64,000 bases of DNA from Epithemia pelagica (taxonomy: Eukaryota; Protista; Bacillariophyta). The translations under genes and the position numbers were made by a program. Location of the stretch: contig OX337228.1 of NCBI GenBank assembly GCA_946965045.2, positions 1,054,001-1,118,000 of the forward strand. The letters run 5' to 3'. Positions 6,037 through 64,000 of the stretch are shown in pieces. Within the stretch, counting starts at the first letter, position 1. Every line of letters begins with the position of its first letter. The notes beneath the pieces were generated by a model. The model did not search any database and was not told the origin of the DNA. It saw nothing but the letters and a program-made list of their open reading frames with translations.

Positions 6037-6866
6037 AGGTTGACGCAGGGTTAAGAGACTCCATCGCTCGTATGGCGAATCAACACAAGGTCTTACCTGA
6101 GCTGCAAGACATCCCTTTCGTGCGCTCTCCTCTCCTCGAAATCCTCGAAAAGAGCTACTCAGCTCACTCAACTGGCATGACGCATGTCTTGTACGCTGAA
6201 CCCTCCACTGGGAAGACCTCTGCATGCCGTATTTTTGTCGAAAACGTAATGAGAAAGAACAAGGGACCCGCTTTGATGGTATCTGGTCAAGCTGTCGACC
6301 ATGATTACTTTAGTCACGTCGCCACGCTTCTGGGAGCGAAGAAGGCAGGATGGGATTGGGTTGCTAGCCTTGTCGCGGCATTGATACCGTCACCAACATC
6401 CTTGGACAGGCCTCATGCTGTGCTGATCTTGGATGAATTCAACGACGAAGGTCCTGATTGCATTAATATGAAAATTGCTGAGGCACTTTTCCGACAGATT
6501 TACAACAACCATTTTGGTTTCACTACGATATTCGTCACGCAGAATAAGAAAATTGCCGATACTTTGTGTGCCATGAACAAATGGCAAAAGATTGGACCCC
6601 TACCTGGGCTGACACGGCCCAACCGATGGGAAGCTGCTGCTTCTACCCCACCGGACCCCGTCCCCTGGATACCCGTAACCTGGACTGCTGAGCGATTAAC
6701 TATCATGATTTTGCTGCGATTTCCAGGGAAGTTTGATGGTGAAGTTGTAGATAAAGTATTGCCTTGGCTTGCTGGCACACCAACGCCAACAATAGCCATC
6801 GAGAAAGCGATCCAAAATCTTGATAAGCGTTTTGGACCACCAGCAAGCGCCAACGACCTGCCTTAG
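5982..6866 (+). CDS. P-loop NTPase (AAA+/STAND-like, Crinkler-island type) without evident effector domain
   Basis: Walker A variant YAEPSTGKT and Walker B VLILDEF; ATG at 5982. Confidence 0.7.
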   Translation: MDFALNTLKESVTAISEAKVDAGLRDSIARMANQHKVLPELQDIPFVRSPLLEILEKSYSAHSTGMTHVLYAEPSTGKTSACRIFVENVMRKNKGPALMVSGQAVDHDYFSHVATLLGAKKAGWDWVASLVAALIPSPTSLDRPHAVLILDEFNDEGPDCINMKIAEALFRQIYNNHFGFTTIFVTQNKKIADTLCAMNKWQKIGPLPGLTRPNRWEAAASTPPDPVPWIPVTWTAERLTIMILLRFPGKFDGEVVDKVLPWLAGTPTPTIAIEKAIQNLDKRFGPPASANDLP

Positions 6867-7293
6867 GGCTTTCTTCGCCATCCAGGGGTACAATGAGGTA
6901 GTAGCCCAAAATCTCACAAAGTTGAGGTCACCCCCACACTTTGACTGACCCTGGATTCAAACGTGGCAGGATTTCCAGGACGTGAGATTTTCACTCCCAG
7001 GTGTCAACGAGGAGGCGTGTCGACGAGGAACTGTTCGCGGAGGAGACGCGTTGTTCGAGGAGAAAAGGCCCGAACCGATTAATGTCGAAAAAATACTAAA
7101 AAAGAACCGAGTGCATGGATTGCGACGAGCCAAAAAAAACCGAAGCTCATTCAGTGGTTTCTAGTTGCTTGCATCTCTCTCGGTTCATACCGTGATAATT
7201 GCCGCTGTGAGTCTGTGCTAACATCATTAGATGGTGCCTGAACGGGTTCATAAAGAACATCTTTCGTGGGATTGTTATTAAGTATCACAAGAT

Positions 7294-7411
7294 TCCTAAT
7301 AATGGTTGTTAAGCATCTCTCTCCACCAGCAGTGAGACGGGATCCATCCTCTGCGCACAAGAGTATATAGTTAGTTCGTTGGAAGGTCCATCCTTAGTAT
7401 AGAGGAAAAAT
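7294..7411. repeat. Dispersed ~105-bp repeat, copy 2
   Basis: See copy 1; this copy carries an extra ~12-nt insert (CCTCTGCGCACAAGAG region). Confidence 0.8.
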
Positions 7412-7467
7412 GAAAAGGAGGTTTATTGGTTCTCCCCGTGGAGAAGAAGAAGATGATGACCATATTT

Positions 7468-9198: not shown

Positions 9199-9469
9199 GT
9201 TGTCTGAACTAGTTATGTGCTCTTTTGTCTGCGGTAGTAATTCAGAGGGTCCAGATGGGCATCAATCAGGGATGCTCAAGCGAAATTGTAACGTCTGCGC
9301 TCTGCGCTGCAATACTCGTAGGTACCATCGTCGTTTGTCCTCTTACTGCAGTTCACTCGAAAACGCGCCTCTGGGTCTGATAAACTGCTTGTCTGTGAAT
9401 TTCCCTTGATGGGATGATGACCTTGTAATCGCGTCGTCAAGACTCGAATGATACTCCTCCCTAGGATTA

Positions 9470-9588
9470 CCCCCAAGCGGATGGATGAGTCGTGCAGATT
9501 CGTGAATGAGAGCTGGACTACATTCCTCTCTATGAACGAAAAAAAGAGACAGTCACGATATCTCATGACTCACCCTTCCGCTAGGGAC
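9470..9588. mobile_element. Small palindromic MITE-like element, copy 1
   Basis: Imperfect ~37-bp terminal inverted arms (CCCCAAGCGGATGGATGAGTCGTG.. / ..CATGACTCACCCTTCCGCTAGGG), flanked by TA on both sides; homologous to 16162-16286. Confidence 0.6.
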
Positions 9589-9813
9589 TACTCCCAAGAT
9601 TATTGAACTCCCATAGCTACTCTTGAATCATCCTCACATTCATTTTCTCCAGGCGATTGTCACACAGTTGATTCAACCTAGTAAGGTCTTGCTTATGTGA
9701 TTTTAGCTTAGAATAGGATGTCCAGACTTGCTTTTAACACGGACACATTTCAATGTCGATTGGACTGTGACCAGTGCAAACACAAACAAGACGTCGTCGT
9801 CATCATCGTCCTC

Positions 9814-12027
9814 CTATGAAAAAACAAAGCCAGCATCAACTAAGGACTCCTGATCAGCATCAATATCTTGCCGAATAGCCGTCATTAGCGATTCATGGAT
9901 TTGTGTTTCCAATTCTTCCATTTTTCCACATGTTTCGCGCCAACAACGAAGGGTTGGATCAACTGGATCTGAACTCGATGCCCTTTGGGGGGGACCAGTT
10001 GCGGCTGTCAATGCTTCCGAGAAAGCAACCTGAATTTCACCCTGCTTTTTGTCCAGGGTTGTGACAGCCGTCTTAGTATCAATCTGAACGATTCCGATGT
10101 ACTGCGGCAACGACCGCACATACTCGTGCCAATAGGTCTCATCATCATTTGACTGCATTTTCTCATTGGGAGCGTTCTGGAGGCAGGGGACAGAATTTGG
10201 GCCCGATTGCCTCCGTGGTTTCTTGCGCACTCCGTTGATTTGTCCATCGGGGGACGTAAGAGCCTTGAATTCCATTGCCTGCAACTTTACAAATGCAAAG
10301 TAGGGCAGACATTCCTTAGGTTGGAGAAACCAAAGCTGTGGCATCGCATGACTGTCGACCAACTTGCATGTTTCCACAAACTCAACAATCATCGATTGCT
10401 TGACAGGATGGTGTTTCTCAGCGACAGTCAGTTGAAGAGCTGCAATGGTCAACCTTCCGCTCCTTTTGATCATGATAATAGCGTCAATCGCAGCAAAAGT
10501 TTCATTCTTGGCTTTTGCAAACACAGTAAAATCTTCATTATTATTCCGTACAATCTCCTTGGCCTTTTCCAAGAAATCCGCCATTGCCGTAAACTCGATG
10601 AATTCCATTTTGGATGCCGATTCCTGAAGCAACACTTCAACAAAAGCTTCCGTGGAATCTACGGGAAGCTCAGAACCGACGATGGTTATGTCCGCTTGAC
10701 GCTTCTTTATTGCCATCGTCAGCAGAGGCTCCCAAATGCAGCCACCAAAGCTGCGTGCCTTCGGCTCTACAAGCAGGCCTTTCATTAGTTTCTGAAGCTT
10801 ATCATATGAACGGGAATCCTCCTTTTTCATTAGCAATCGCCAAATGTATGGCGAGGGGATCTGGAGCTTGAATCTTTTTCGGAAGCTGTCTGTAGGGATA
10901 ATGTGTCCAACAAGGCCGGGATACATATTACCAAGCGCGGCGGTACTCCCCTCATTTCTTGGAGGAGAATCGTCCAAGAGAAAAAGATGTTTCACTAGCA
11001 TTTCCATTCCGTATTTCGAAATAGCTCCATCCACCATCTGCTTCGCTCTATCTGGATTTTGAAGGCAGAGGCGTGGGACACCTCCCACATACTCGAATGC
11101 GTTTTTCGCTGCGGCAACTGCATCATGGCCCTTGTTGGCTGCCATTTGCTCTACCTCACGTTCGCTTGCTGAATCAATGAAACAAAAATTACCATCAGTT
11201 TCACTCCAAGTTTGTTGCTTCCGAAGCCTTCTCCATCGTTCGCTGTTCGCTGAGCTAACAATGAGAAGGAATCCGATGGGGAAAGATCCAACATCTCCTC
11301 CGCTGAGATCCACAATGTGAAGGGTCTTATATTCGTTCCTCTGGTTGCCAGCCCAAATCTCGTTGCCGTTGCACATATAATGGACTTCCCAACCAAAAAG
11401 CTTTGCCATGAATAAACCAATGATAGCGCCAAGAATTGACTTGCCGGTTCCCCGGACTCCAGTCAGTACCATTGTATTCTTTTTCCGGTCCTCGTCTGGC
11501 TGTGCCTGGGCGTACTCTTTATGAACTTGCTCGAAGAACGCAATCGTTGAGCAAAGAATGTAGGAATAGCACTGGCGCCAATAAACTGAGCTGATTTCAA
11601 CGTCAAACCATGACATGCGCTCCACTTAAATGAACCGCTGCTCGTTGACCCTCAAATTTGAAACATCTTGATCAAAGAATTTCTTCATCGATTTGATATT
11701 GGGCGGCAGTTGCGGAGGATCATGCTCCTGTTGCAGATCGTTAGGTGGACCCACCACAGTCAGCGCACTTCTACTCGTCGTACCTTCTGGGACAGGATCA
11801 CCAGGATCAATGAATTCCACTCCATCCGGAATCGGCACCGTTGTTCCTGGAGGGTACACGTTCAGTCTAGACGCGGGGAAACGTAGTTGCTCTTTCTCCT
11901 GGATTTGGTCTTTCAAATCAGCGACATTGTCCCCTGTAAAATTTTTGATTTCGATGACAGAAGGGTTGGTATCATTCGTGTCGTCGTGGTAAAGGCGGAT
12001 TCAAACGTCGTTGTTGGTTGCTGCCAT
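9814..12027 (-). pseudogene. Crinkler/RHS-like gene (ubiquitin-like header + NTPase + REase) with two in-frame stops
   Basis: ATG at 12027. One frame throughout, interrupted by TGA (12001-12003) and TAA (11626-11628). Header NVADLKDQIQEK..LNVYPPGT; Walker A TGVRGTGKS; YVGGVPR; G..WE; FAAIDAI..LQLTVAEKHH. Confidence 0.75.
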
Positions 12028-14170: not shown

Positions 14171-15463
14171 TCAAAAACCCGTGTCATATTCAAAGCTACC
14201 TGTCTCAACCTTCAGCAGGACCTTGTTGAGACACTCTTCGAAACCGGTGCAGGATAGAGCAAACACTTCCAGCTCAACACCATCATCCTCAGTCGAAACA
14301 AACAACTGAGAATTTTCGTCTTGTTCCAAATACACATGACGCAGCATATATTCAAAAGGACCCATCATCTGTGATATCTTTTTCCAAACCATTGGAGTGT
14401 TCTGAGGAGGAGGAGTCCCAGCGTGGATTGGATTCGATCTGTGCCACTGCTGCTGCACCCAAGCCACCAGGAACGCCACCATCTCTTGCGCTACAGCCTC
14501 TTGTGATTCGTGCAATTTGGCAGGTCGCTCGGTGGTGGTGAGAAACCATTCCGACTGGCGCTGAAATAGTTCGCAATGGAAGGCCTCCTCGTGGATCCTT
14601 ACGTGTTCTTTGTCCAGGAGTGCCTCAAGCTTGGACAGATCGCAGTACGGCTTGAGTGTATGGCCCTTGGGCGCATATTGCAATTTCAAATTGTGGGTGT
14701 ACTTGTGGAGGAATACCTTGTTTAGCGACCCCTTCCGACCACCCTGGACATAGTCCCACACGGAGGCCAGTAAACAAGCGGATACAGCGTTACCCAGCGG
14801 TACCGACATGGTTGGAAGGTCCTCTTCCAACTCGAATTGTGGCCCGAGGTGTTGGCCGTCTGTTCCGACGCGAAACGCCATGCGCAAATTGGTCGCATCA
14901 CACGCAATAGGTAACATGGGTGGATCCACCAACACTGTAGTCTTCTTGTAGTTGGGAGTGAACTGGGACGGACTCCGCGATGGATACGTGTCCGTGAACG
15001 AGGCGACCGCGAAAGCGGCATTGCCAATGTCCAAAACAGTGAGAACCGAAGCCACGGGCTGGATACTTTGAAACGTGACTGTGGATCGGCCCAAACGGAT
15101 GCCACCTCCGTCCACGCCGCTGAAACCGTAACCGGAGATGATTCGGACGTCGCACTCGACTTGGAGACTCTTGTCGCTCACTGGAGTCGACTTGCCATAG
15201 ACCCGTTTCAAGTATGTGAAATAGTCTTTCGGCAAGTACTCCACAACTCCTTCGATTTGGTTTTCGTTGATTACCCTCTCGGCGGTGGCGATTACTTCCT
15301 CGTTGGTATTTAAGAGTTTTGGAGCAACCAACAGCTGGACCTGTTCGGGGGGAATGTTCAAGGCATAGGGTACAAGAGCAATGGGACAGAGCTCCCAGAA
15401 AGCTTCTCCGCCGCCACCGCCACCACCATCACTGAATATAAGCTGAAAGGACAAGGGAGCCAT
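14171..15463 (-). CDS. Hypothetical protein (430 aa, no recognised domain)
   Basis: Long ATG-initiated intronless ORF with normal globular composition. Confidence 0.55.
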   Translation of the reverse strand: MAPLSFQLIFSDGGGGGGGEAFWELCPIALVPYALNIPPEQVQLLVAPKLLNTNEEVIATAERVINENQIEGVVEYLPKDYFTYLKRVYGKSTPVSDKSLQVECDVRIISGYGFSGVDGGGIRLGRSTVTFQSIQPVASVLTVLDIGNAAFAVASFTDTYPSRSPSQFTPNYKKTTVLVDPPMLPIACDATNLRMAFRVGTDGQHLGPQFELEEDLPTMSVPLGNAVSACLLASVWDYVQGGRKGSLNKVFLHKYTHNLKLQYAPKGHTLKPYCDLSKLEALLDKEHVRIHEEAFHCELFQRQSEWFLTTTERPAKLHESQEAVAQEMVAFLVAWVQQQWHRSNPIHAGTPPPQNTPMVWKKISQMMGPFEYMLRHVYLEQDENSQLFVSTEDDGVELEVFALSCTGFEECLNKVLLKVETGSFEYDTGF

Positions 15464-15563
15464 TTCACAGAAAATAGGTAACCTTATTCGGTTGATCGAA
15501 AAGACAGAAGTGGGATCGAGTCCATCGTTATTGGTTTGAGGTTTACCTGTAGAGAGGTTCTTG

Positions 15564-16161
15564 TAAGGGCTGGGTAAGCCGATCCATGTTCGGCTAAGTA
15601 GGCTCAGTACATTAAGCTACGTAGTACTGTTTTCATCACTGTAACAAGTGGGGCGAATGGTCACAAATCGAAAACTTGCTGCCACGAGAAACAATGCAAT
15701 CCGGAAACCATCACTCGACAATGGTCGAAGAAATCATCCCCATGGCAATAACTTCATGGATAATTGAGCCTAACTGAATCACTTTTAGAATAATACTCTT
15801 GAATACTAGAGCAACTATGGTTTCAATTTGATTCAGTCACCGTTGAGAAATGAATGAGTTAGGAAGGTTTTTGGATTACATCACCAGTATACCTTTTGAT
15901 CCAACGCGACAAATCTTCTGTAGCTGCAGAACACAGTAATACTAGCAAACTCAAACAACTTACAGTAGTAGGATGTTGATGCGATGCATCGGTAAATGCA
16001 TGCGGCATCAACGGATCTCGCCGTCATCGTGGAGTGTTTTTGCATTTTTTCGGACTTCCCACCATTTCAGGTATGACGTGTACTATGGGATTTTATGTAC
16101 GCTACGTAGCTTTTGTACTGAACCTACTTAGCCGAACATGGATCGGCTTACCCAGCCCTTA
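15564..16161. mobile_element. MITE (~600 bp) with ~60-bp TIRs
   Basis: Outer 39 bp (TAAGGGCTGGGTAAGCCGATCCATGTTCGGCTAAGTAGG, including the flanking TA) are a perfect inverted repeat; similarity continues to ~60 bp; AT-rich non-coding interior. Confidence 0.88.
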
Positions 16162-16893: not shown

Positions 16894-19800
16894 TCAAGAG
16901 AATGAAGATGGTGCCTTGTTCAAGGCTTGTTTGGGGCAGCGTCGGTCATGGGGTGGACGTCCTTTCCCTCGTTCTACGCAGTACTTCATGTACTTGACGC
17001 AACAGAACTGGGTTTGGACACGAGGTGGTGGTCCGAAGGGAGGAAAGGTGGGCATGCATCTCGGGACGGATTGAAGACCACCCCAGCCATGGGGATTGCT
17101 GTGGAATGCAAAGGGGTATTGCTGTTGATCGGGGAGTGTTGTTGGCCGTTGCTGATTTTGCTTGTACGGGTTGACAGGTTGGTTTTTCTGTCTTGTTGTC
17201 GTTGTTGTTGTTGCCGATTGCAGTACCACCAACCCATTTGCTGTTGTTGCCATTGCAGGTGTGCTGTTTGCTGCATTTTGAGGCTCTTTGTGTTGTTGTT
17301 GTTGATCCTGCACTGTCGCTGCTGATTGATTTGTTGCTGCCATCGTTGTTGTTGGTAAGGCTTTGCTGTTGTTTGTAACCTTTTGCTTTTTGTTGCTGGT
17401 GTTGTTCTCATCCAAATCGTCGCTCTCTTTTTCTTCTCCCTCTCTTTCCTTTCTCTTATTGCTACTGATTGCCTGTGCTTGTGCTGTTTCTTGTTGTTGT
17501 GTCTGTTGTTGTGTTTCTTGCCGTGTCTGTTGTTGTGTTTCTGGCTGTGTCTGTGGTTGTTGTATTTGTTGGATTTCATCTTCGACCTCTGACTCCTCCT
17601 CTGCCAAACCCAACAATGGAATGGACGTGTCATGCGGCAACCTCTTCTTGTTGCTCGCACATTTTCGGCACTGGCATCGATCGTTGAGTGGATGCTTTGG
17701 AACTTGTTGCGTGATTTCTTTTCTCGTTTCCAGGTACTCGGAGAAAAACCGTTCTCCCGTATCTTCTGGAAGCTTCTCAACCTCTGGAAAGGGAGGACGA
17801 GAAGCTCCAGACATCGAGGCAAGTATATTGATCATGTTTGTTTTGCATGCGTTACCAAAACTCACCACCATTTCCCATCCTGCAGGCACCACTGAACGTT
17901 CTTCTTGAGACTTCGTCATGATTCTCATCTTGTGACGAATTGCCCTGTTATACTGGGCCGTGCCTGCCAAATTCAACGCATCTGCGAGAGTTTCTCGCAT
18001 GCCACAGTTGGCAAAATGCGTCAAATTATCATGAAAGCTCTTGAGCTTACTCTCTCCTCTCAAAGGTACGTACTCCACTAGCTGGTTGCTTGATCTTGGT
18101 GATGGAGGTATCTCACGATACATTTTCTCCACGGGCAAGGGATCAGCAAGGAACTTTGCCTTCTCTTTACAGTTTTCCAGTGCTTGATGTGTTTCGGCCG
18201 TAAAAAGAGGTTGATTGGAGTGTGGATCCAATCGGCCTTGTGCTGGTGGCTTGCCAGGAGTGGAAGTGCACTTGTATTTGCACTTCCACTCCTCCAACTT
18301 GAGGACAATCGTATCGCCACCCCGAATAATCTTCCGTAAGTTCTTTGAGTACCTCTGTCGAAAGGTCTTGGTTCCCATCATTTCACTGATCTCTTCGTCT
18401 GTGTATTGTTTCTTGGAGCTTGACATGGTGCCATTTTTCAAACAGCCAACAAGTTTCTCCAAGTCTTCAGGATGGTACTCGTAGATCGCATCCAACAAAT
18501 CCTTCATGGCTATCCCAAAGTCAATGTGCCGTTGTCTGAGCGTCTTGGTTATCCTCTGTATGAAATGGAAAAGGCCAAGACGGCCCTCCAAGTCATCAAC
18601 CAACAACAACCAAAAATCCTTGCCACAAGGCCATGTGTCAGAGTACATGGCCTTGGGGCAAAACCCGGTACGTCTCAGCACTTGTTCCGCAGCATGTGCA
18701 AACTCGAGTGCTGATGTGTCGTGCACTAACACTGCACAAGCAATTTCTCCTGCCTCTGTTGCCATGGTCCACATTGCAGCTGCATTGAGGCGTCTTGGAT
18801 AATTTTTCACTACCTGGTGGGTGTGGTCGTGAGCAAACATGTGCTGGCATCTAACCCCTTGAATCTCTCTTGTGTTTCTCTCATTGTCAGACACCATCCA
18901 GGGTTGCCATTCGGAGCTTGCTCCATCATCATATAGCTGGCGGATTGTCTCGCCTAAAGGTGGGTAGCAAACCAGAAACTCACCATCCTTTTGCACGTAG
19001 TCTTCTGATTCTTTTCCTGTAGCAGCACAATAAGAATAGTATCTCATTGTCTTGTCTTCATAATAGGTGTTGATTCCTTCATATAGCATCCGACTGATGT
19101 AATCCCCATTGCCATAGGTTACCATTGATGCTTCCATTATCCTCGTAGCATCTTTAGCTAGATGCGATGTTCCTCTAGCATACTTGGGTTCCACTGGGTA
19201 ACACATAGCCATGTAGGGAGGCAGTCGTGCGAGCAATTCTCCATCATTCGCATAGAAGGCAGCCGAGCACCCGGCACACTTGTATCCCATAAGTATTGCA
19301 TACTTTGGGGGACCAGACATGGCGAAAATGGGGAAAAGGGACTTGTTTTTTGAAAAGTTCGATCGCGTACGCTGGAGATTACCCCGGCAACGAGGACAAC
19401 GCAAGTGGTGACTGGGGAAAAACAGCTCCCAATCAACAACCAGGAGTTCCTGTCCCACAATCGAGTCGTACAAAGCACTCGTGTTGTCGGCAATGGGGGG
19501 TACAGTAACGGTAATATTAGTGAAGAAAGGTTTCAAATTCTCAACACAACGCTTAGAACCAAGGCACGTGTCGGTCACATAACTCGCCAACGCATGCACA
19601 GCACGTGGGACATGCACCTCCGTAGGTACTGCTGTCACACGCATAATAACCTCAAACTTGAAATCTTCGGCTGTTGGAACATACGCGCCTTCCTCGCCAC
19701 CAACGGTAGAACTTTCCGTTGCCATAGTCACACTAGTAGATTCTGTGTTTTCATTTTCAGCCCCTCTCTTTGCGTTTTTCGACGTGCAATTGGGACGAGG

Positions 19801-20196
19801 TCGCATGAAAACATCCACTGCCTCCTTCGTAACATTGGAGGCGGACAGTTTCTCACCACTGGTAAGTGGTTTGCGAATTGCTGCTGCATGGACAGCCTGG
19901 GCCTTTTCTGAGGCCACCACCTCTGCTCCTCTTCCATCGTTCATTCCCTTGCCCGTTGTTGTTGTGTTTTTGCTGCATCTGGGGTGGTGAGGGCGATGAG
20001 GGATGGCCATTCCTCTTGCCTTGGCCCTGCAGATGGGGCAGTCGATGTCGGACTCAAAGATGACCGAAAGGTCCATCTTTCTCCAACCTGAACGCTTCTT
20101 CCAACTCTTCTTTGGCCAACGAGAGTACTGATTTCCGTATCGTTGCGACTGTGGCCCCATGGCCTTGGCCGCTGTGAATTGTGCTGCAGAACTCAT
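16894..20196 (-). CDS. MULE-like DDE transposase-derived protein (DUF6729-type N-terminal region), possibly inactive
   Basis: CPRC..YKCAGC zinc motif; AHDHTHQV (D1), MYSDTW (D2), RLGLFHF (DxxH position), RGESKLKSFH (E position). Motif order matches, from memory, the DHTFK/YVD/LDIWHF/LESFH transposase family. No TIRs found by eye. Confidence 0.65.
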   Translation of the reverse strand: MSSAAQFTAAKAMGPQSQRYGNQYSRWPKKSWKKRSGWRKMDLSVIFESDIDCPICRAKARGMAIPHRPHHPRCSKNTTTTGKGMNDGRGAEVVASEKAQAVHAAAIRKPLTSGEKLSASNVTKEAVDVFMRPRPNCTSKNAKRGAENENTESTSVTMATESSTVGGEEGAYVPTAEDFKFEVIMRVTAVPTEVHVPRAVHALASYVTDTCLGSKRCVENLKPFFTNITVTVPPIADNTSALYDSIVGQELLVVDWELFFPSHHLRCPRCRGNLQRTRSNFSKNKSLFPIFAMSGPPKYAILMGYKCAGCSAAFYANDGELLARLPPYMAMCYPVEPKYARGTSHLAKDATRIMEASMVTYGNGDYISRMLYEGINTYYEDKTMRYYSYCAATGKESEDYVQKDGEFLVCYPPLGETIRQLYDDGASSEWQPWMVSDNERNTREIQGVRCQHMFAHDHTHQVVKNYPRRLNAAAMWTMATEAGEIACAVLVHDTSALEFAHAAEQVLRRTGFCPKAMYSDTWPCGKDFWLLLVDDLEGRLGLFHFIQRITKTLRQRHIDFGIAMKDLLDAIYEYHPEDLEKLVGCLKNGTMSSSKKQYTDEEISEMMGTKTFRQRYSKNLRKIIRGGDTIVLKLEEWKCKYKCTSTPGKPPAQGRLDPHSNQPLFTAETHQALENCKEKAKFLADPLPVEKMYREIPPSPRSSNQLVEYVPLRGESKLKSFHDNLTHFANCGMRETLADALNLAGTAQYNRAIRHKMRIMTKSQEERSVVPAGWEMVVSFGNACKTNMINILASMSGASRPPFPEVEKLPEDTGERFFSEYLETRKEITQQVPKHPLNDRCQCRKCASNKKRLPHDTSIPLLGLAEEESEVEDEIQQIQQPQTQPETQQQTRQETQQQTQQQETAQAQAISSNKRKEREGEEKESDDLDENNTSNKKQKVTNNSKALPTTTMAATNQSAATVQDQQQQHKEPQNAANSTPAMATTANGLVVLQSATTTTTTRQKNQPVNPYKQNQQRPTTLPDQQQYPFAFHSNPHGWGGLQSVPRCMPTFPPFGPPPRVQTQFCCVKYMKYCVERGKGRPPHDRRCPKQALNKAPSSFS

Positions 20197-20808
20197 GATC
20201 TCTATTTGTTATTCTAACTTATTGAAGTGTATCCTCTTTTCCAGGCTTCTGACCATGCTCAAAAGGGTCATGAGATGGTCAGAAGAGGACTTGTCGCAAT
20301 GGTCGGCTTGGCCATGCCATGGGCGACCGTGAAGGACCGACCGGATCGGCTGATGGAATCTTCCCTCCATGTTTTTTGTCCGTGATTCGATGGGTTCCCG
20401 GGACACGGTAAGACACTTGTAACGACATTTGTTTCCTAAGTGATTTTTTGTGAAACGACATTTCTAACCCAATCATATTGCTGCCTTTTGAAACTAACAC
20501 CCCCTTTTCTTCTCTTTGTGGTTCTTGCGTTGAGAGTGTTGAGAGAGAGCACGTCCTCACTACACCACACCCTCTTGACAAGGAACATACAACAGCACCG
20601 CAACCGATCCAGGCAACGGTATAGAGCAAGGCGCTTCTTGGTGTGCGACGGGAAGAAAAAAGAATTGGAGGTGACGTTGGGGGCACCCAAGACGAATTGT
20701 GTCATTGACGACAACGACAACGACAAGTGAAACTGTTGTGGGAATCTTGCCGTGTGGAATCGTGGAACCTGTTTCAAGGACGGACCATCATCATCAATAC
20801 ACAACAAC

Positions 20809-44655: not shown

Positions 44656-45716
44656 TCAGGTATATAGTACCAGCAAAAGAAGGACAATGGCGGTGATAAA
44701 GAGAATGGCAATCGTACATAATTGAAATCGATCCTTGGTACCCAAAAAGTCGGACAACTTCCCCATGACAACGCCCAATTGTTCCTCGGCTTCTATCAGA
44801 TCCGATTCCATCTCATCCAACATTTTCCCCTGCTGACCAATTTCTTCATGAATATTTTCGGCCATGGTTCCCACGCGCGAGACGGCAGCATCCAACTGAT
44901 CCAGTGTCTCGTCTTGATGTTGACGATGTTGATGCAACAAGAGAGACTCTCGTTGGTGATTGGTATAGCTGTTGTTGTGTTGATTGGATCCATTGCTTAA
45001 ATGGCTGTTGTTGGTATTGCTACCCGGTCCATCGGCTTCTCCATTTGTCGACAACATGTTGTAATGGCTTTTGGGAGAGGCTGTGGCGGATGAGGATAAT
45101 GTGGTGGTCGCAGTCGAGGTTACTCTTTGTTTGGCTTGATTCAGTCTATCTTGACATGCTTTGGAAAAACATTGTCGTTCATACAGTTCATTTGGTGGTA
45201 ATTGTGATGACCCACTGCTCAGTTGCACACAGGTATCCAAGTCATTGTAGGTTAACGAGGCATCTTTGATGCTCTTTTTCAAACTCTTTTTCACATTTCT
45301 CAGTTTGGTATTGTCCTGTACAAAAGAAGAAACAATTAGGTCTCTTGATATTCGCAAACAGATTCGACGCTCGAAGACAACGCAGTATCCGACACCAAGA
45401 TAGACCCAAGAAAAGCAAAAAGCATCCACACCTTCCTCTCTTCCGTTTTCCGGAATTCTAAGATCCACACTCCTTGTTGTTGTATGCGGGGAAGCNNNNN
45501 NNNNNNNNNNNNNNNNNNNNNNNNNNNNNNNNNNNNNNNNNNNNNNNNNNNNNNNNNNNNNNNNNNNNNNNNNNNNNNNNNNNNNNNNNNNNNNNNNNNN
45601 NNNNNNNNNNNNNNNNNNNNNNNNNNNNNNNNNNNNNNNNNNNNNNNNNNNNNNNNNNNNNNNNNNNNNNNNNNNNNNNNNNNNNNNNNNNNNNNCGTCA
45701 AGGGTGCACCAGACAT
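44656..45716 (-). CDS. Syntaxin-6/SYP61-like Qc-SNARE; spans assembly gap; probable intron 45316-45431
   Basis: SNARE motif QDETLDQLDAAVSRVGTMAENIHEEIGQQGKMLDEM, C-terminal TM anchor QLCTIAILF..LLVLYT, Syntaxin-6_N-like helices; probable ATG at 45716. Confidence 0.82.
45496..45695. other. Assembly gap (200 N)
   Basis: Run of N. Confidence 1.
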
Positions 45717-46332
45717 TGGTTTGTGCGTTTGTGAAATGGCCTGGTCTTGTTTGAGAATTGGCACCACTCGCTTTATCGTAATAATCTGATAGAGATGCTT
45801 TGTTGTTGTTGTTGTCGGCCCAAAACAAAGAGAAGCCTTCCGTCCGTTTTTGCCGCCGTTGAAAGATGCACGTCACAACAGACACCTCGTACCTCGTACT
45901 CGTACCTCGTGGGCGCGTGTGTCGTGCGGCCGTTTCCCGTTTCAGTCTTGGTCACGTGTCGTTGGCACATTGAGGGAAAAGTACTGAAAATACCGGGAAA
46001 AGCTTTATCCAGTGTTTTCACCGGACATGAGGAGGAGTACTCTCGAGTGTCAAGACATAACTATCGTCGTTTAGTGGTTTAAGTATTAACATACCATTAA
46101 AGATGAGATGTAATACCAGTAGTACGTGCACTCGAGCGACAGGATGCGACACACCGGAGACGCCCATCTTCGCCACGGGTTGTTCGAGAGAGAAAAACCG
46201 ACGAGAACGGTGTGGAAGAACCAAAAAAACCAAAAGAGCGCACACCGAAGAGGTTCCAGAGGAGCAGAAAGGACAACCCTTTAGCAACAACGGGTGTGTG
46301 TGGTCCATCTGTTGGAGTGTGAAGAAGAAACC

Positions 46333-49300
46333 ATGACACGCCCCATGCCAATTCACTATCCGGGACGTGACCTTCGAACCGAGCCTCATGAATCGGAACC
46401 AACTCATGGTTCGTACGATCCCAGCACGTACGATGCCGCTCACAACAGCAACAACCCACTCTTGTGGGAAGACGCCGAAGATCAATTCCATCAACGGTTG
46501 GCGAGACGGAGTGGGGGAAATAGTAATGGGGGTGGTACTTCCAATAGTGGAAACAGCTTTTGGCGGACTTCAAGAGGCCTTGGTTCCAACAACACTAACA
46601 ACAACAACGCGGCATTGAGTACTCCGAGAAACAACAACAATAATGCACCGACCTCAAATGACAATCCCACTCCAATGACTCCGACATTTAGCAGCATGAG
46701 TCTTCACACAGGCAGTGGGCCCTCGCTGGGAGGAGGAGGAGGTGGAGGTCTTTTGGGTGCTGCTCTACAATCCCACAATTCACAACACTATATGGACACG
46801 GTAAGGCCCCTGGAACCTCATTTCTGCAAAATGCTGTGAAAACGCTGAGACTTACCTCTGGTACGGCGTCTTGTTTGATTTTTTATGGAATCCTCGTCAA
46901 CAGCAACAACAGTGGAGTGATGAAGATGCACATCCCCCGATCAACAGTGGTCGTCGGCGGAGGGATGTCCCGGACCATAATCGAAGCGCTGGTAGCCGTG
47001 ATTCCCTAAATGGGACCGATCGCGATTCGGCAAAGAAACAACGAGATCAGCAGAGACGGGCAGAAGCACGGTTGAAACGAGAAAGCTTTGCAAATCAAGT
47101 GGAAGCAGGTCACCTAGCGGGCGGCGATGATCATTTGGTGGACTCGGTTCCACCCGCCGGCGTCTTTGCGGATCTCATGCGGCACAACTCCAGTGGCGGC
47201 ACGGCATTGGAACGTTCCACTAGTGATCAATCTACTGGATCTATCCTTTATGGGAAAGCGCCCAATCCAGCATTGTTGGCCAAAACGGCATCCCTCATTT
47301 TCCCCACAGGCGTGGAGGCATCTTCGGGCGATTGTTCCGGTAGTAGCGTTGTGTTCCCCACGGCCAGTGGCGGTGGTGGGTATCAACACAGCAACAGTAC
47401 CGGCAGTATGAGTCATGAATCCAGTGATGCCAAACTACGCAAAATCAATTTACTCTTGGATCAATGTGAATCGGTCCGTTTCCCCTTTAAGAAAAAGTTG
47501 ATGCTTTGCAATTTGGACATTACCACGTTCGATATTCCGCTCAACTACCTGTGTGGGACACCCTTGGGGAAAACATTGCACAAATTGTCCTTGTCGGGGA
47601 ATCCTTTGGGGTCCATACCGGATATGCTCGTACAATCCCTACCGAGTCTACAGCATTTGGATCTTTCTCAGTGTCGTTTGCACAGTTTACCAAAAGAATG
47701 GAACTTGCCACAGCTCAAGAAGCTTGTGCTCTCGAATAATTCATTAAGAGATTTTCCAGAAGAGGTAAGCAAGAATGGACCGGTGGTCGCCCGTTTCATC
47801 ACTCCAGTCCTTCTCACGCCTTGTTTGAACAAACGTTTGTAGGGAATGCTGGCTGGACTTAGAGAGCTCAAAGATTTGGACATGTTTGGAAACAAGATAT
47901 CGGTCATTGTTGTTCCTCACAACCATTCGCTATTGTCCAAATTGGAAATTTTGAACCTTGGCTACAATGACATTTCGTACCTGCCGGATGAATTGGATCA
48001 ATTGCGTTCCCTTCGTGTTCTGAAGGTCCGCAACAATTTTCTCTCAAAAGTTCCGATGCGAGTTTGTGATATGGATCTCAAGTCCATTGAGGTTTCTTCC
48101 AATCCAATCAGCGTCCCACCCCTGGAGACCTGTGAACGAGGCATTGGCAGTATGAAACGTTATTATCAGCAAGTCCGTTTGGAAGACCAATCCAAAAACA
48201 GGACGGTTGAAGAATCCCATCGTCGAGGTGACCGCGGAAAAGGAAAAAAAGATTCCAAGAAAAAGTACAGTGGTTTTATGAAAAATCTCACTCTCTCCAA
48301 GTCGCCCGCAGCAGGAATCAAGAAGCAATCTTCTTCTCCCAGTGTTCTTCCTTCGTCAGCTTCAGCAATCCCCCTGACACAAACCAAAGCGAACCTCACT
48401 GTGGGTGCCAAGCAGCCAGAGACTCCCGATGACATTCCTCGTGAAGCGATTGTGAAAGCAACGCCGGCAACCGAATGGTCGGATGAACATGGTGTCATTG
48501 CTACCGATGCGGATGTGACAGACATTATGGTGGACAAACCACAAGAAATCACCGTGAACGATACTCTCAAGGTTATATTTGTGGGTATGGCAATGGTAGG
48601 AAAGACCAGCATGATCAAGAGATTGATTGAAGGCCGGAATGCCGTTATTCCTACACTTGACGAAAGAACGGTGGGTGTTGATATCTACGCATGGGACCCC
48701 AAACAGGACAAGCGGTTTGAGCATATTGATTCACGCATCCAATTTGAGGACAAGGAATTGGCACAAACCTGCGGTGATGTAGACGTAAAGTTCAGTGTGT
48801 GGGACTTTGCTGGTCAGCATGTGTACCATGCGACGCATGAGCTGTTCTTTTCTTCCAATGCTCTCTATGTTCTTGTTTGGGATATGGGTGCGACGAACAA
48901 AGACACCCTAAAACGGAAACCGTCCCATTTGGACGAACAGGGTGATTTCAAACTAAGTTACGATTCCGAGTCAGACAATGAAGGCGATGAACGTGATGGC
49001 GAAGATCGCAGTAGTGACGGGTTTTGTGCCGAGGAAGATGCACGGCGTGCGGATCGTGCGCTAGAACGCGACATTGACGAAAAGATTCAGTTTTGGGTGG
49101 ATTGCATTCAAAGCAGTGCACCCGGTGCTGCGATTTTACCAGTCGCGTCGCATGCTGACTACTTTGAAAGCAACGGAGGGCAAACTGAGGCGAAACGTAG
49201 ATGCAACATGCTGAAAGATCGACTGAATAGGCACGAGCAACAGCGCATTCAAGGAATCCAGCGTCGATTGCAGGAGTACAAAGACCAGAATCGCGCCGGT

Positions 49301-52045
49301 GACCCGGCAGCGCACCGATTACGCAATTTACTGTGCCCTGCCGCGAGGCCGAAACTTGTTTTTGGCGAGGGAGCAGAAGATTGCGTTGTTCGAGTGAGTG
49401 GTACTCAATATTCTGGTTTTGATCTTTTAACGGAGAAAATTGTGAATATCGCAACTGGACGATATCGAGGTCGCTGGATGTATCCCATCTTCCATGGACA
49501 TGTTGGTACACGTATTCCACGGATGCGGTTACAAGTGCGAGACGCTGTACGAGGAATGCGTGATCGTTTCAAGGTGGTCGAATGGGGTTACTTTATCAAT
49601 AAGATTCGAGAGAGTTTCAATCTTAGCTCTGTGGAAGACATATCGGATGCATTGCATTTCTTGACCAGCATTGGAGAACTCTCATATTTTGGAAGTGTGA
49701 TGGCGATGAATAATAGTCGAGTAGGAAAATGCAATATGGAAGTTGAAGAAAAAGCAATGCTCGACAACAGTGCCGGAGTAGAACCAGATATGGAACATGC
49801 TCAGGAAAAGATGGCAGACGAAGATGATGATGACCTCGATGACGAGGCCGTTCTTTCCATGGACGAAACAAGCATCACAGCACCGGGTACCGAGGATGGT
49901 TCACTCTCAACCGTTGAAGATTTCATGGCTAGTGGCTTATCTCAGTTTGTTTTCCTGAATCCCCGTTGGCTTGTCGCGGCTGTGGCATGTATATTACGAC
50001 ATGATTTGGATAGAGAAATTAAAGAAACTCGTCGTGTCTTGGAAGGAAAACAACCACTGGATCGGGCCGGTAGCTTTCAGGAAGCTTCGCTGAACTGCCC
50101 AGTCATTACGGCAGATGATGCAATGATGCTTTGGCAAGCCAAGAAAATAACGAAGAAGGCTGCTGAGCGTGCACAAGCCCATTCCAACAACATGACTGTG
50201 ACACCATTCGAATTCCTCCAACTTCTCTTGATTCGGTTTGGTGTCTTTGTTCCAATCGATTTAAGTATTGAGAAGGCCCTTCTTGGTGGGAAGGAATACG
50301 CTAGATTGGTCGATAGCATCAAAGGCTCTTCGTCGAAAGAAACAGATCTACCCCCCGAAGATGTGACAGTGGAACTCACTAACGAAGAGCTTGCGTTGAA
50401 GGCAAAATTCTTCTTCTTGCCCAGTTTACTTGGGCCTGGAGAACCAAGTGAGGTGTGGACCTACAAAAACTCGGAATCATGGAAGACAACATTGTGCCAC
50501 TCGGTGCTCTTCCCAGATGGTGTTCCACCGGGGTTGATGGAAAGACTGACAGCGAGCGTTCTAAGCTCTGTTTACGCTGTGTCGAGTCGACAAACAGAAA
50601 CACCAGGAAATGCGAGTAGTGACTCTGCAACATATGAAGGGCGGCTCACTGTGCGTGAGGTCCTTTGCTGGAGGACAGCTTTCTTCTTGAAGCTTGGGAC
50701 TGTTGTCGTTGGCGAGGATGGTTCACAAAGAGAAAGCATCGTCGAAATCTTCTGTCACTTAGCAGAACGTGAATCTCATCTCTGCGTCGGATCCGATTAC
50801 ATGGCAGTTGGGACGCGAAGGATCATTGTGAGTGGTAGAGGCCAGGTTGGCGATGGCGGACGAAAAATATGGAAGGGTGGCTACCTTTTGGTGTGCAAAT
50901 GTGTTACACGAGTGATGGAGGGGTATGGTGGTCTCGAATACGAAATTCAGGCGTTCTGTCCAGATTGCCTTGCCAAGAAATCGGTGAGCGAAGCGAGCTG
51001 GTGGGAATTCACAACAATACGAGCAGCTGTTAGGAATGCGGAACCCACTTTAAGATGTCAACACCACGGGCATGTAGTCGACACGCGATTTGTGGCTGGT
51101 CCAGTTGATTCCTTGCAAAAGCAAAGAGAAACTCTTCCCGCTTCTCCAGAACCGGACCCGGTATCCGTCCAAGAAATGCTAGGAGCGGTGGTTTTGGTCG
51201 GTCTTTGGGACGGCAAGTCAAGGAAGGTAATCAGGGCGGGGTCCGGTGTTATTGTAGATAGGAAACGTGGATTGATCGTAACGGCAGGACACACACTCAT
51301 GAATATTTGGGGTGACAATAAGTATCCCTTTGGTGAGAACTACTACGGCCTTCCTCAAGGCAAGGTTGTCATTGGTGTTATACCCGAACACGAAGATGTC
51401 CGGTCGAAGAAGAAGGGTATGGCAGTTTTTCGATATTTCGCCAAGATCGTTGCTAAAGATTCGAGCTTCGAAAAGGGGGAATGTCAGTTAGATGCCTGCG
51501 TATTGCGTATAACTACAAAAATGGAAAATGATGTTGGTGGCAATGGAGAAGAGTGCGGAGATCAACCAGAGATCATTCTTCTCAACAATGAGAAAGCCTT
51601 CCGGGAAGAGAACCTGAAAGTCTTGAAGATCTCCGCGAATGAATGTGAACTAGATGATCAAGTGAGAATACTTGGATTCAATCAAGGTGGAGAGGGTTTA
51701 TTGGGCCCAGGTGAAAGTCTGAATCGATTTGTAGATTTTGCCCGTGGTTATGTTTGCAAAAAGTTTGTGAGTTCAGGAGAAAAAGAAGCACAACCGATTG
51801 TGATGCCTGGGAGAACCGCAGGTCGTGATTTCTTCAATCCTCGAGAAGAAATTGCGGTTATTTGTCCAACGATTGGCGGTCACAGTGGCGGACCTTGTGT
51901 AAACCAACAAGGCGAAGTGATTGGCATTTTGAGTCGCGCCGATCCAGCCGACAGTCAACGCTGTTACTTGTCACCCGCTTCGGAATGGAAACCTCTGATC
52001 AAGCTGGCCAAAAAGTCGGACCGGAATTGGACAGGTGGTCTTTGA
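46333..52045 (+). CDS. Roco protein: LRR-ROC-COR, zinc ribbon, C-terminal trypsin-like peptidase; introns 46801-~46903 and 47765-47842
   Basis: LRRs (LHKLSLSGNPL, LEILNLGYNDI); ROC GMAMVGKTS, RTVGVDI, WDFAGQHVYHATH; COR FLNPRWL, LPSLL, PPGLMERL; CPDC..CQHH; protease IVTAGH, LDAC, GGHSGGP. Confidence 0.92.
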
Positions 52046-59041: not shown

Positions 59042-59210
59042 TGAAAAGGGTGCGACCTAATGGAGACTAGCCTAGAGCTGACTCAAAAGGTCCTACGTCA
59101 CCTTGCCCAACCAGCCTCACACTTGGACTGACGCACTACTTGCATATCTTTTAGGAACGTACGAACTAGTTAACCTTCTATCATAATTTTTCCAATTCAT
59201 CCCCTTTTCA
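59042..59210 (+). repeat. 5' LTR of element B (169 bp)
   Basis: TGAAAAGGG..CCCTTTTCA perfect 9-bp terminal inverted repeat, directly followed by the PBS. Confidence 0.85.
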
Positions 59211-59233
59211 GGTTATGAGCCCAAGTATCACGC
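59211..59233 (+). promoter_or_regulatory. Primer-binding site of element B (half-tRNAiMet type)
   Basis: GGTTATGAGCCCAAGTATCACGC; resembles the copia PBS GGTTATGGGCCCAG. Confidence 0.85.
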
Positions 59234-59404: not shown

Positions 59405-60980
59405 ATGGAAACGATAGCTGACTTCCTCAGACTCGGAGCAGCTGCTAACAAAGAAGACTCTGACTCTTCAAGAATTCCAGGCTGGTCCTCTGACGAATCA
59501 AGCTTAAGTAGTATTGAAACAATGAGTACTAAGGTCGTTATAAACGGAGAAGAGGTTGAAGTGAATACCAGTGCCACTCCGTCCCAAGATGTGGAAACAG
59601 CCCTGTTCAAGAAAGAAGACCGTGAAGGAATGGGCGCAGAGAAGCGCCAAGAACTGTTCTCGAAGGCTGCCGCTTCGACCCCTGCCAAATTCGATCTGCT
59701 CTCAGCCAATATCACAGACGTGAAACAGCTGGAAGAGTGTTATAATCTTAATTTGATGGTTTCCCGTCTTAAGAGTCAACATATCATCTATGACATGCAC
59801 GACGTGTTCACGATTGTTACACCCGATGGTACAGGACCAGACACCAGACCTCAAGACAGACGCTCCTCCGAAAGACTTATATACGTACTATGGAGAGCTT
59901 TCTGAAGAAGACGTTGCTGCCAGTAATGAGTGGTACTCAACTTGGCCAAGAAAGTCCTGGTATCGTGAAAATTTGATGCTCACGGCGAAGCAACTTGAAG
60001 CAAGCATGAAAAATGCCCTTTGGACGAAAGTCTATGAACGGTATAAACGGTATAAGACCGAGCAACAAGGAGGTCCCTTACTTTTCGTCATCATGATGAA
60101 ACTACTTGTTACCCATACGGAACAAGCTACGAAGACGCTAGTAGACACTGTTGAGAATCTTAAGATCTCTAAAGTTCGCGGTGAGAACGTCTCGAAAATT
60201 GTGAGCCTTATCCTTGGCGCACATGAGCGATTGGAAGCTATTGCGAATGTCCCCGACGACTTCTCTAAAACTGTTCTAAAAGTTCTACAGACTAGTTCTG
60301 TGGATCAGTTCAACAAAGTCTTTGAACTAATCGAGAGTCAAGCACGAATCGCCGGTGCTCTGTCACGATCTACACCCTCTACCCAAGCTCAATTCGAGAT
60401 CCCTTCTGTTGAAGCCTTGTTGGATCTAGCCGAACAAGAGTACCTCTCATTGTGCCGTTCCAACGACTGGACGGGCATCAAGACACGAGGAAGTCCCTCG
60501 ACCTTCACAGCTGGTGGTACCAAGACCGATTCTAGTGGCCGTAAGTGGAAGCCCGTCTGCTGGAACTGCGGTGGCGAGCATACGATAAAGGATTGTCCCA
60601 AGCCCAAAAATGAAGCCTTGATCGAAGCCAACCGCCAAAAGTACAATGCCAAGAAGAAAGCTCGCGAAAATGGATCGGGTGATCGTTCTCGCACCTCCAC
60701 CAAATGGCGTCCCCCATCGTCTGACGAGCACGGCAAGCGAGTCATTGATGGCAAGACCATGTACTGGGATGCCTCTTCCAAGCGTTGGAACAAGACTCAA
60801 GGGAATGTCGCGACTGATGACGACACCACTCCAACCGACAAGACCACCCAAGTGCAAATTGCTGGCGCTACTGCCAATGTTGCCTCCACTGGAACCACCG
60901 GAACGACGAATGCCCAATCTCGTCGCGTACTTGAACGCACCCTGGAGTCTTTGATGACCCAGGTGCAAAACCTCTCTTGA
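59405..60980 (+). pseudogene. Gag of element B, frameshifted by a 7-bp tandem duplication
   Basis: ACCAGAC duplicated at 59836-59842 and 59843-59849; removing one copy gives a continuous ORF collinear with Gag A. Knuckle CWNCGGEHTIKDC. Confidence 0.88.
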
Positions 60981-63900
60981 TGGTGTGGCCGTCGACGTCC
61001 TGTCGATGTAGGCCTCCTTTTCCCGATAACCTCATTTCCCAGGAGGGATACCTGGGTTGATTTAGTTTGGTTGTTGCTTTGTGTTTTTTTGAGCGTGTTT
61101 TTCTCCTTGCATTTCTGTTCAATGATGCCCTGGGCCTTATCTTTCGTCACAATCTGGTTGCGAGAGGGAGGTCCGCGTGGTGGCTATTCTTCGTTCCCTT
61201 ATGCCACCTTTGGTCCCAACCAGATGCAACGACGACAACGGCGTTACAAGACTCGAATTTATCACGTGCGACGCCGGTTTACTACTAATATAATGGCCTT
61301 TGACTGCACAACGGATTCAACGGTTACATGGGCTGGTACGATTGACTGTCAACGGACCCCTTTTACTAAGGCCCGAGTGCCCTCTGTCCGAAGACGCGCG
61401 AGGCGAGATAAGAAACGAGCGCGAAGGCGACACAAGAAAACTACCAGACCAAAGAAAACTACGCATGACACCTATGATTTCAACTACCAAGGCATCTATG
61501 TCCCTACAACATGGACAATACAAGACGAGCCGCCTCTAGATCCAACATCAGAGCGACTATCTCGTTGGTTTGGGTCAGCTGAGGAGCTTCAGTCTGCAAT
61601 TTGGAAGCCATGGCTGAGCAAGGGGCCGGATCCATTGGCCCAGTTTCGTGCCATTCGAGCATTGAGTGGCTCAACATTCTCAAGATCTCGGTCACCCAAG
61701 CAACAAATGCAGCAAGCAATGATTGCCGCTGCCAAGTTAACCGGAAAATTGTCTCCTCGAACTGATCCTGAGTCCTTGTTGCCACCAGCATTGCAGCATT
61801 GCATGTCTGTCTATCTCAATGCAGCAGACGATGCAGACCTGCCCGTGGTGATCGATACAGGAGCATCCACATCGTTGACTCCTCGACTAGAAGACTTTGA
61901 TGGACCACTCAAAGATTGTGAGACCACTGAGCTGAATGGATTATCCAGCACAACAGCCGTGGTTGGAGTAGGAATGGCTGCCTGGACGTTAAGGGACGTG
62001 TTTGGTGTGGTCCGAACCATCCGAACACGGGCCTACTACGTTCCAGAGGCGCAGATACGCCTGTTTAGCCCCCAAACCTACTTCCAAGAGCAAGCTAAAG
62101 GCGAATTGTTGGTAAATGCCTTTCGTTCTCGATTGACTCTTCACGATGGGAGCGAACTGGAGTTCCCCTTTCATCCCAACAGTAACCTCCCTTTGATGCT
62201 CTCTGGACGACAAACCAAGATGGGCCTTGCCTTCGAAGACGTCATGGCCTTATCCAAAGAGTTTGATTGTCGTGGTCTTATGTCAGTGGCGGATGAAACA
62301 AATCAGAATGTCACCCAGGCGCAGAGAGAGCTATTGACCTGGCACTGGAAGTTAGGTCACGCTAATTTTGAATGGATCCAGGATTTGTGTCGCGATCCTA
62401 AAACGGATCGACGTCGAATTCTCCACACGAAGCATCGACAAGTGTCAAGTTGTCCTGTCAATGGTTTGCGCTGCGCAGCTTGTCAATTGGGCAAACAGAG
62501 GCGTCGTGGTGCTAATACCCAACATACGAACACGAAGGATGGTCGTCACATGGTCACTCGGTCAGAAAATCTTCGACCAGGTGACTGCGTTAGCCTTGAC
62601 CAGTATGACTCGACGCTAACTGGCCGTCTCCCTCACACAAGAGGAAAGGAACCCAAGAAAGATCAGTACACTGGCGGTACATTGTTTATAGATCATGCTA
62701 CAGGATTGATGCATTGTGTACATCAAGTCTCCCTAAACACTGGTGAAACCATCGAAGCCAAACTTCAATTCGAACGGTTTGCACAGGACCATGGAGTTAC
62801 AGTCAAATCGTATCTGGCGGATAATGCCCCTTTTGGCAATACCAAGTTTGTGGACGCAGTGAAAAATGCTGGTCAGTCCCTGTCGTTTTCTGGTGTGGGG
62901 GCCCATCACCAAAATGGTGTGGCCGAGCGTGGCGTCCGTACGGTAACCTCTTGGGCCCGTACTATGATGTTGCACGCAGTATTGCATTGGCCGGAGCACG
63001 CCCATGACCTAAGTCTATGGCCCTTCGCTCTCAATCATGCTATCTGGTTGTGGAATAATCTTCCCAAGCGAGGTTCCTTTATTGCCCCGCTGGAATTATT
63101 TTCCGGAACAGTTTTCCCTACCTTGGCCCATCTACATAGGATCCATGTTTGGGGTTGCCCAGTGTACGTTTTGGACCCTAAGATCCAAGACGGGAAGAAA
63201 CTTCCCAAGTGGTCGCCTCGTGCCCGTCGAGGGCAATATCTCGGAGTCTCTCCCGACCATTCTAGCACGGTGGGCTTAATTCTCAATATTTCTACCGGCT
63301 ATGTGAGTCCGCAATATCACGTCGTCTACGACGACCTCTTTTCAAGTGTCCCTAACGCCGAAACTGGCGGGGTCCTACAACAAGACATGTTCACAGGGTC
63401 CTTTTGGGACCATCTTGTGGCCTCTGGTCTGGAGCGGATTGACGATGGCGATTTTGACGACGAACAGCCTCAGCCACTACCCCTTCACCACGATTGGCTG
63501 ACCCCTGAGGAAGCCGATGCTCTTCGCCATCAACAAAATGACGCAGCTCGAATCAATCCCTTACCTTTGCCTCCTCCTCCCATCCCTGTTCCAGAGGGAG
63601 CTGCTGCTCCAGAGGAAGCTCTGGTGCCCTTGGCTCCAGAGGGAGATGACGACAGTGAGATTCAAGCGGATGGAGACCCCATTTTCCCTCACCTTTTTCC
63701 TTTGGATCACGTGGAGCCAAATCCACCAGCCGCTCCTCCAGATGACTTGATTCAACCTGTGGTGGATGGAATGTGGGACGGTCCCAACAACTCCACCATC
63801 GACTCTGGAGACGAAATTGTAATCTTCGAGCACGAGGAACAGGATGAGGAAGACCCAGTTCGCGCACAAGAGAAGTCAAGACGTGCGCAACATTTGGAAC

Positions 63901-64000
63901 AACCGGACGAGATGCACTTTGGTCGTGGAAAGCGCGCACGCAAACCTAATCCTAAGTACGCCTCGTACTCGCGTGAACGTTGGAAGGAGCACGCGCTCTT
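60981..64000 (+). CDS. Pol of element B (spacer, aspartic protease, integrase; RT beyond window), in frame with gag after a single UGA; absent from the ORF track because it runs off the window
   Basis: Hand translation is open from 60981 to 64000: VIDTGAS (PR); WHWKLGH..CAAC (HHCC); SLDQYD, LADN, NGVAER (DDE); RGQYLG..TGYVSPQYHVVYDD. Confidence 0.92.

Follow-up and report, generated by a model that had tools for sequence, protein, structure and literature searches.

The gag-pol junction is considered here in two Ty1/copia retroelements of the diatom Epithemia pelagica, found at opposite ends of a 64,000-nt stretch of contig OX337228.1 (GenBank assembly GCA_946965045.2, positions 1,054,001 to 1,118,000 of the forward strand; hereafter the window), in both of which an in-frame UGA stands between the two genes and is followed by a predicted RNA hairpin. 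Comparable arrangements have been described. In the Ty1/copia element Tca2 (pCal) from Candida albicans, a UGA separates gag from pol, which share a frame, and an RNA structure is located just 3′ of it; the junction drove no readthrough in a yeast reporter and showed weak promoter activity (PMC2194720). The Ty1/copia element VdLTRE5 from Verticillium dahliae likewise has gag-UGA-pol, with readthrough being presumed (PMC3441728), and in the Ty3/gypsy elements Tj1, Tcry1 and Tosmo1-3 from fission yeasts gag and pol are separated by an in-frame TGA that is conserved and, in Tj1, essential for transposition (bioRxiv 10.1101/2022.12.06.519325). The principle is not new, and a covarying hairpin at a family-wide UGA is a variant of a known recoding strategy. 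The initial annotation of the window, which was made from the sequence alone and contrasted this junction with copia elements using one open reading frame (ORF), splicing or frameshifting, therefore overstated both the contrast and the novelty, as Tca2 and VdLTRE5 are themselves copia elements with gag-UGA-pol.

In Tca2, a case from one species, the spacer is purine-rich and 8 nt long and a pseudoknot is predicted, whereas in the diatom clade a 6-nt spacer of free sequence precedes a bulged, covarying hairpin in 10 deep lineages; the 8-nt purine-rich spacer of the Tca2 and murine leukemia virus (MuLV) type is thus absent. Nor is a leaky-context motif (CARYYA or UGA-CUAG) conserved immediately after the stop, the spacer sequence varying among the 10 lineages. 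VdLTRE5 shares gag-UGA-pol within copia with the elements studied here and is represented by two copies, with no signal identified in the source passages (PMC3441728). The signal of the Tj1 group is the primary-sequence context GAA-TGA-CT, while in the diatom clade the context varies and the structure is kept. Stems located 6–12 nt past UGA are reported to raise readthrough (PMC3159437). MuLV uses UAG, an 8-nt spacer and a pseudoknot, and alphaviruses use UGA-C, a spacer of 8–12 nt and a stem with a loop of 100–150 nt, in contrast to UGA, 6 nt and a compact hairpin with a 3′ bulge in the diatom clade (PMC3159437, PMC8310308); the likeness lies in a 3′ structure at a fixed distance which is predicted to lower termination. 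The SEPN1 redefinition element also combines UGA, a 6-nt spacer and a compact stem-loop, and stimulates readthrough in cells even without a selenocysteine insertion sequence (SECIS) (PMC3159437), but its stem is 16 bp long and it belongs to a selenoprotein mRNA with a SECIS, whereas no SECIS and no meaningful Rfam match were found in the window element or 12 related loci. As for diatoms, “readthrough” or “read-through” is absent from the main text on the CoDi elements of Phaeodactylum tricornutum and Thalassiosira pseudonana (PMC2806351), and the words diatom, copia and Tca2 do not appear in the part of PMC5009743 that was searched. No paper on the diatom signal was found in the literature searched, which did not cover the principal survey of gag-pol recoding (Gao et al. 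2003), the supplement to Maumus 2009 or Repbase/GyDB, any of which could already note the UGA.

In the right-hand element, located on the plus strand, gag ends with TCT-TGA (60975–60980, the stop itself being at 60978–60980), followed by a 6-nt spacer (60981–60986), which is fixed in length and free in sequence among relatives, and by hairpin 1 (60987–61014). This predicted readthrough stimulator consists of a 4-bp GG-rooted basal helix, a 3′ bulge of 2–3 nt, an upper helix and a variable loop, and in the window copy it has 10 bp, a 5-nt loop and a GUA bulge. The pol frame (60981–64000) is open for 1006 codons from the UGA up to the window end, beyond which it continues, with a protease motif at codon 290 (61848–61865) and then an integrase region. 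The left-hand element is located on the minus strand and its gag ends with TCC-TGA (TGA at 53–51); its hairpin 1 (2–44) begins 6 nt past the UGA and shares with the right-hand one the length of the spacer, the GGCC/GGCC base, the G-U pair and the GUA bulge, while its upper stem is longer; just 50 nt 3′ of the stop are inside the window. The stop, spacer and bulged hairpin, the same-frame continuation for more than 1000 codons and the second, divergent element with a like junction were all described correctly in the initial annotation.

Relatives were fetched from metagenome loci with a Gag motif lying ~90 codons upstream of the stop, a pattern blind to the junction. Twelve of the 15 matches were Gag, and the other three, L001, L002 and L005, were excluded as non-Gag, their translations showing a long ORF with an RGG-like tail and no pol behind it; they gave no match to R1, a model of the junction. 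The 12 loci and the two window elements were grouped into 10 lineages, most of which are 20–35% identical to each other across the last 150 Gag codons (two closer pairs reach 49% and 68%). Silent sites are saturated, as judged from identities between lineages of 28% at fourfold and 55% at A/G twofold positions. The junction of L011 was assigned by judgement, the stop after the conserved C-terminal helix being chosen over an earlier one; this locus has a single extra TGA in gag (position 2955), 26 codons before the junction, in a frame that is otherwise open. L006 has a broken gag frame, and its junction, located via the motif itself, was not counted as independent. Pattern scans found no relative in viral contigs, and L016, the sole match in the scan of genome contigs, was unrelated.

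The gag stop is UGA in 10/10 lineages, against a background of 12 TGA ends among the 22 long ORFs of the window; since these 12 ORFs end in TGA, a host-wide code with UGA read as Trp was rejected. A profile search yielded 4171 clusters resembling Gag (E up to 0.001), and none of 185 Gag homologues (38 from one search and 147 from the best 150 of the 4171 hits) carries a Pol match, so the sense codon which the initial annotation had named as evidence against recoding, if seen in most relatives, did not appear. Among the 109 homologues reaching the profile end, 104 stop between −9 and +6 residues from it, although such protein ends indicate the presence of a stop and not which stop codon it is. 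No Gag forms of 1072–3060 aa were found in what was a weak search, and 0/120 Pol homologues match the Gag profile, in a search limited to proteins of up to 1761 aa, a size too short to show a full fusion. P0040, a protein of 1782 aa, was rejected as a Gag-Pol fusion, as it comprises the N-terminal part of Gag and about ten repeats of the Gag knuckle/C-terminal motif without Pol, and is possibly a domesticated gag.

The GG-rooted helix begins exactly at +7 in all 10 lineages, compared with 0–2 of 10 at offsets +1 to +6, and only 19 of 1198 sampled TGAs pass the identical test. For covariation, 12 junctions were aligned by sequence only, with L010 and L015 omitted as near-copies of L004. RNAalifold, unprompted, returned the same nine pairs, four in the basal helix and five in the upper helix, with the 3′ bulge between them, and six of the nine pairs are altered on both sides, including the basal change from GGGC/GCCC to GGCC/GGCC. 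The covariation score is 0.439 versus 0.181 for shuffled and at most 0.109 for slid alignments. In the best-covered sister subfamily, known from host contigs of one study, four changes fall within 60981–61014, all of them in the spacer, loop or bulge. The 20 positions that pair are unchanged, for which simple arithmetic gives a chance of about 0.02; changes less than ~30 nt from the alignment ends are unlisted in this comparison.

Folding energy says less. The bare hairpins fold at z −3.28 (right-hand, 1/200 shuffles) and z −2.89 (left-hand), both with hand-chosen boundaries, and wider windows around the junction are unremarkable (z −0.5 to −2.0, with −0.5 to −1.1 for windows of 83–140 nt), so energy alone is weak evidence and the case for hairpin 1 is carried mainly by conservation and covariation. 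Model R1 recovered 14 junctions, of which 12 were recovered by construction and L010 and L015 at E 0.11 only; two further hits are likely due to chance. The loops of hairpin 1 differ among lineages in both sequence and length. A loop-loop contact between hairpin 1 and hairpin 2 (see below) was considered and dropped, the pairing seen in the window being lost in a sister subfamily when compared by eye. The alignment of stop, spacer and covariation that the initial annotation had suggested thus bears out its proposal of a family-wide element as regards the UGA and the covarying 3′ stem-loop; the scope, drawn there as diatom copia elements at large, narrows from all CoDi elements to this Gag clade, and readthrough itself we infer.

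The reading frame is kept across the junction. In eight of the nine loci long enough to include it, the protease motif shares the frame of the UGA; the ninth is a decayed copy. The 3′ arm of the hairpin lies at a multiple of three in 9/10 lineages (15, 27, 27, 30, 33, 33, 33, 39 and 45 nt, i.e. six lengths), and from the stop to 61058 the net indels of sister subfamilies in host contigs amount to 0, −3 and −6. The first AUG after the UGA is located, depending on the lineage, at codon 1, 9, 26, 28, 30, 43, 48 or 60. With hairpin length changing by whole codons and the first AUG not conserved, the stretch after the UGA is likely to be translated from Gag, and such frame keeping fits ribosomes crossing the stop, while it fits separate initiation or splicing poorly.

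It is therefore proposed, with a probability of roughly 0.7, that the conserved gag-UGA-pol junction and its hairpin form a structure-stimulated programmed UGA readthrough signal; a fixed distance combined with a free spacer sequence is what would be predicted for a signal acting through ribosome geometry. Most ribosomes would stop at the UGA and release Gag. For a minority, the hairpin, lying six bases ahead near the mRNA entry channel, would lower termination, and a near-cognate tRNA (Trp, Cys or Arg) could decode the UGA, inserting an ordinary amino acid and yielding Gag-Pol; the analogy with MuLV would suggest a frequency of a few percent. The product would carry a hydrophobic segment between Gag and the protease.

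Several observations weigh against this proposal. Lineage L004/L010/L015 retains a stem of only 4–5 bp, whose pairing probability in context is 0.2–0.7 with other partners competing, and in L011 the helix is in a different register. The codon frame of the stem's 5′ arm is constant, giving Gly and then often Arg, and part of the stem's conservation could therefore lie at the protein level. None of 500 shuffles reached the observed covariation score, which is not to be taken as a p-value, since the shuffling ignores relatedness and the rows L006, L008 and L014 are near-identical. The base following the stop is C in five lineages, A in three and U in two, i.e. the leaky +4 C is absent from half of them. 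In L003, whose pol frame is open for 676 codons apart from this one stop, codon 27 is another in-frame TGA and precedes the first AUG; the copy may be dead, or translation of the stretch may be dispensable. Finally, the profile-based sample of Gag homologues is confined to the best 150 of the 4171 hits.

The almost stemless lineage, as well as the finding that the local structure of Tca2 is insufficient for readthrough, would also suit another explanation, according to which the UGA is crossed by mere leakiness or with the help of a signal farther away, while the hairpins act in the packaging or dimerisation of the RNA or shield it from nonsense-mediated decay. Purine-rich loops are of the type bound by Gag knuckles, and the loop of hairpin 2 is purine-rich. 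A packaging signal, however, needs no exact 6-nt distance, yet this distance is found in all 10 lineages, whereas hairpin 2 does shift its position. This explanation is considered unlikely.

Separate production of Pol from a downstream start, by means of an internal promoter, re-initiation or internal entry, with the hydrophobic segment acting as a signal-like leader, appears somewhat less probable still. It is favoured by the weak promoter activity of the Tca2 junction, by the position of the extra L003 stop ahead of the first AUG and by the overlapping UGAUG at the stop of both window elements. Stop-start re-initiation at UGAUG was nevertheless rejected because its AUG lies outside the pol frame, and the overlap is not common to the other lineages. 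The range of first AUG positions, from codon 1 to 60, and the codon-sized indels upstream of the first AUG further speak against a start of this kind and are better accommodated by readthrough.

If the stop were removed in the RNA, either by a minor splice or by hairpin-guided A-to-I editing of UGA to a Trp codon, neither the in-frame stop nor its constant identity would be required, at least for splicing. No donor position within 90 nt upstream of the stop is shared among the lineages, L013 is without any donor-like site there, and the stop is not within a consistent duplex; we know of no ADAR-type editing in diatoms. Even with the precedent of splicing setting the Gag:Pol ratio in copia elements (PMC2194720), a removal of this sort is very unlikely. 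Least credible is decoding of the UGA as selenocysteine, an option raised in the initial annotation; the hairpin would then play the part of the SEPN1 redefinition element, and a SECIS would lie elsewhere in the transposon. Beyond the codon being always UGA and the spacer having the 6 nt of SEPN1, nothing supports this option, the site is an unconserved linker and not a redox motif, UGA is also the leakiest stop, and Rfam gave no SECIS or other meaningful match in the window element or the 12 loci, in agreement with the earlier remark that no SECIS core was visible, although the 3′ end of pol and the 3′ LTR (long terminal repeat) were outside the searched stretches. Equally far-fetched is a scheme in which a SEPN1-like hairpin and decoding by selenocysteine or the selenium machinery would make the output of the transposon enzymes, in the form of a membrane-anchored Gag-Pol, depend on the selenium status of diatoms, with feedback through Gag binding added by hairpin 2.

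The failure of the Tca2 reporter left open how gag-UGA-pol copia elements bypass the stop, and the diatom clade offers a compact 34-nt candidate signal, for which natural compensatory variants and transformable diatoms make a direct test feasible. The family is recently active, judging by its members at 90% identity, which number 39 for Gag and 18 for Pol, and with a family of this size many elements would be misdescribed by annotation in which the UGA counts as damage or Pol begins at an arbitrarily chosen AUG. If the signal works, it could serve as a fixed-ratio expression part for algal engineering.

By their sequence features both window elements belong to a diatom-type Ty1/copia family. 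Both have LTR ends of the TG...CA type with an adjacent likely primer-binding site, and the pol order of the right-hand element, protease, integrase and RVT_2, is that of Ty1/copia, the reverse transcriptase being known from homologues at 96–98% identity, as it lies beyond the window. The Pfam gag_pre-integrase and SH3 matches in the right-hand pol frame are weak and below the curated cut-offs; the 98%-identical homologue P0186 carries RVT_2, and full-length Pol homologues at 96–98% identity carry PF07727. Among named Pol homologues, those of Nitzschia inconspicua and Cylindrotheca closterium are the closest (49–56% identity). Both elements are cut by the window edge, the LTR evidence consisting of the 5′ LTR only.

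The 5′ LTR of the right-hand element (59042–59210, plus strand) is 169 bp long, with TG...CA ends and a 9-bp terminal inverted repeat, and upstream of 59041 other contigs of the family diverge from the element. It adjoins a likely primer-binding site (59211–59222, plus strand), a near-identical 12-mer being located after the LTR of the left-hand element; we take this 12-mer to be similar to the half-tRNA-iMet site of copia elements. The gag gene (59405–60980, plus strand) codes for a single CCHC knuckle and is split into two ORFs of different frames (59405–59905 and 59757–60980). Near 59836 the window copy contains 7 nt absent from other contigs of the family, which accounts for the frameshift, and with such a gag the copy is probably non-autonomous. 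In the left-hand element, the 5′ LTR (1896–2130, minus strand) has TG...CA ends and an 8-bp terminal inverted repeat, and gag (51–1793, minus strand) is intact and codes for 580 aa.

Hairpin 2 (61038–61056, plus strand), present in part of the family, has a 6-bp stem and a 7-nt AGGGAUA loop. L011, which is 27% identical to the window element in Gag, contains the identical loop at 3120–3138 with the stem arms swapped, a swap that was predicted from a peptide difference and then seen in the DNA; it rests on two sequences and a peptide motif, and several lineages are without hairpin 2. The start of the hairpin shifts from +58 in the window to +85 in L011. Of 120 Pol predictions, 7 contain the matching peptide PGR[DE]T, but the majority of the 120 begin too far downstream to include the site. 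Next to it, between the UGA and the protease, there is a hydrophobic, membrane-like segment of 19 residues followed by an Arg-rich stretch (61062–61118, plus strand). Such a segment is found 18–36 codons past the UGA in eight of nine lineages with sequence, with a mean hydropathy of 1.8–2.5 over 19 residues, and its location between Gag and the protease suggests that Gag-Pol may be membrane-anchored. The initial annotation was silent on the frameshifted right-hand gag, on hairpin 2 and on this segment.

Elsewhere in the window, the region 46805–52045 (plus strand) shows, by eye, leucine-rich repeat, ROCO-type GTPase and C-terminal trypsin-like protease motifs, with two ORFs of one frame adjoining at a stop, an intron probably lying between them. 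A cluster of divergent P-loop and crinkler-like ORFs occupies 5859–11625 and 14171–15616, and an intronless ORF of 1104 codons at 16894–20208 (minus strand) is transposon-derived in appearance, both being assigned by eye. The region 44656–45951 contains a 200-N assembly gap.

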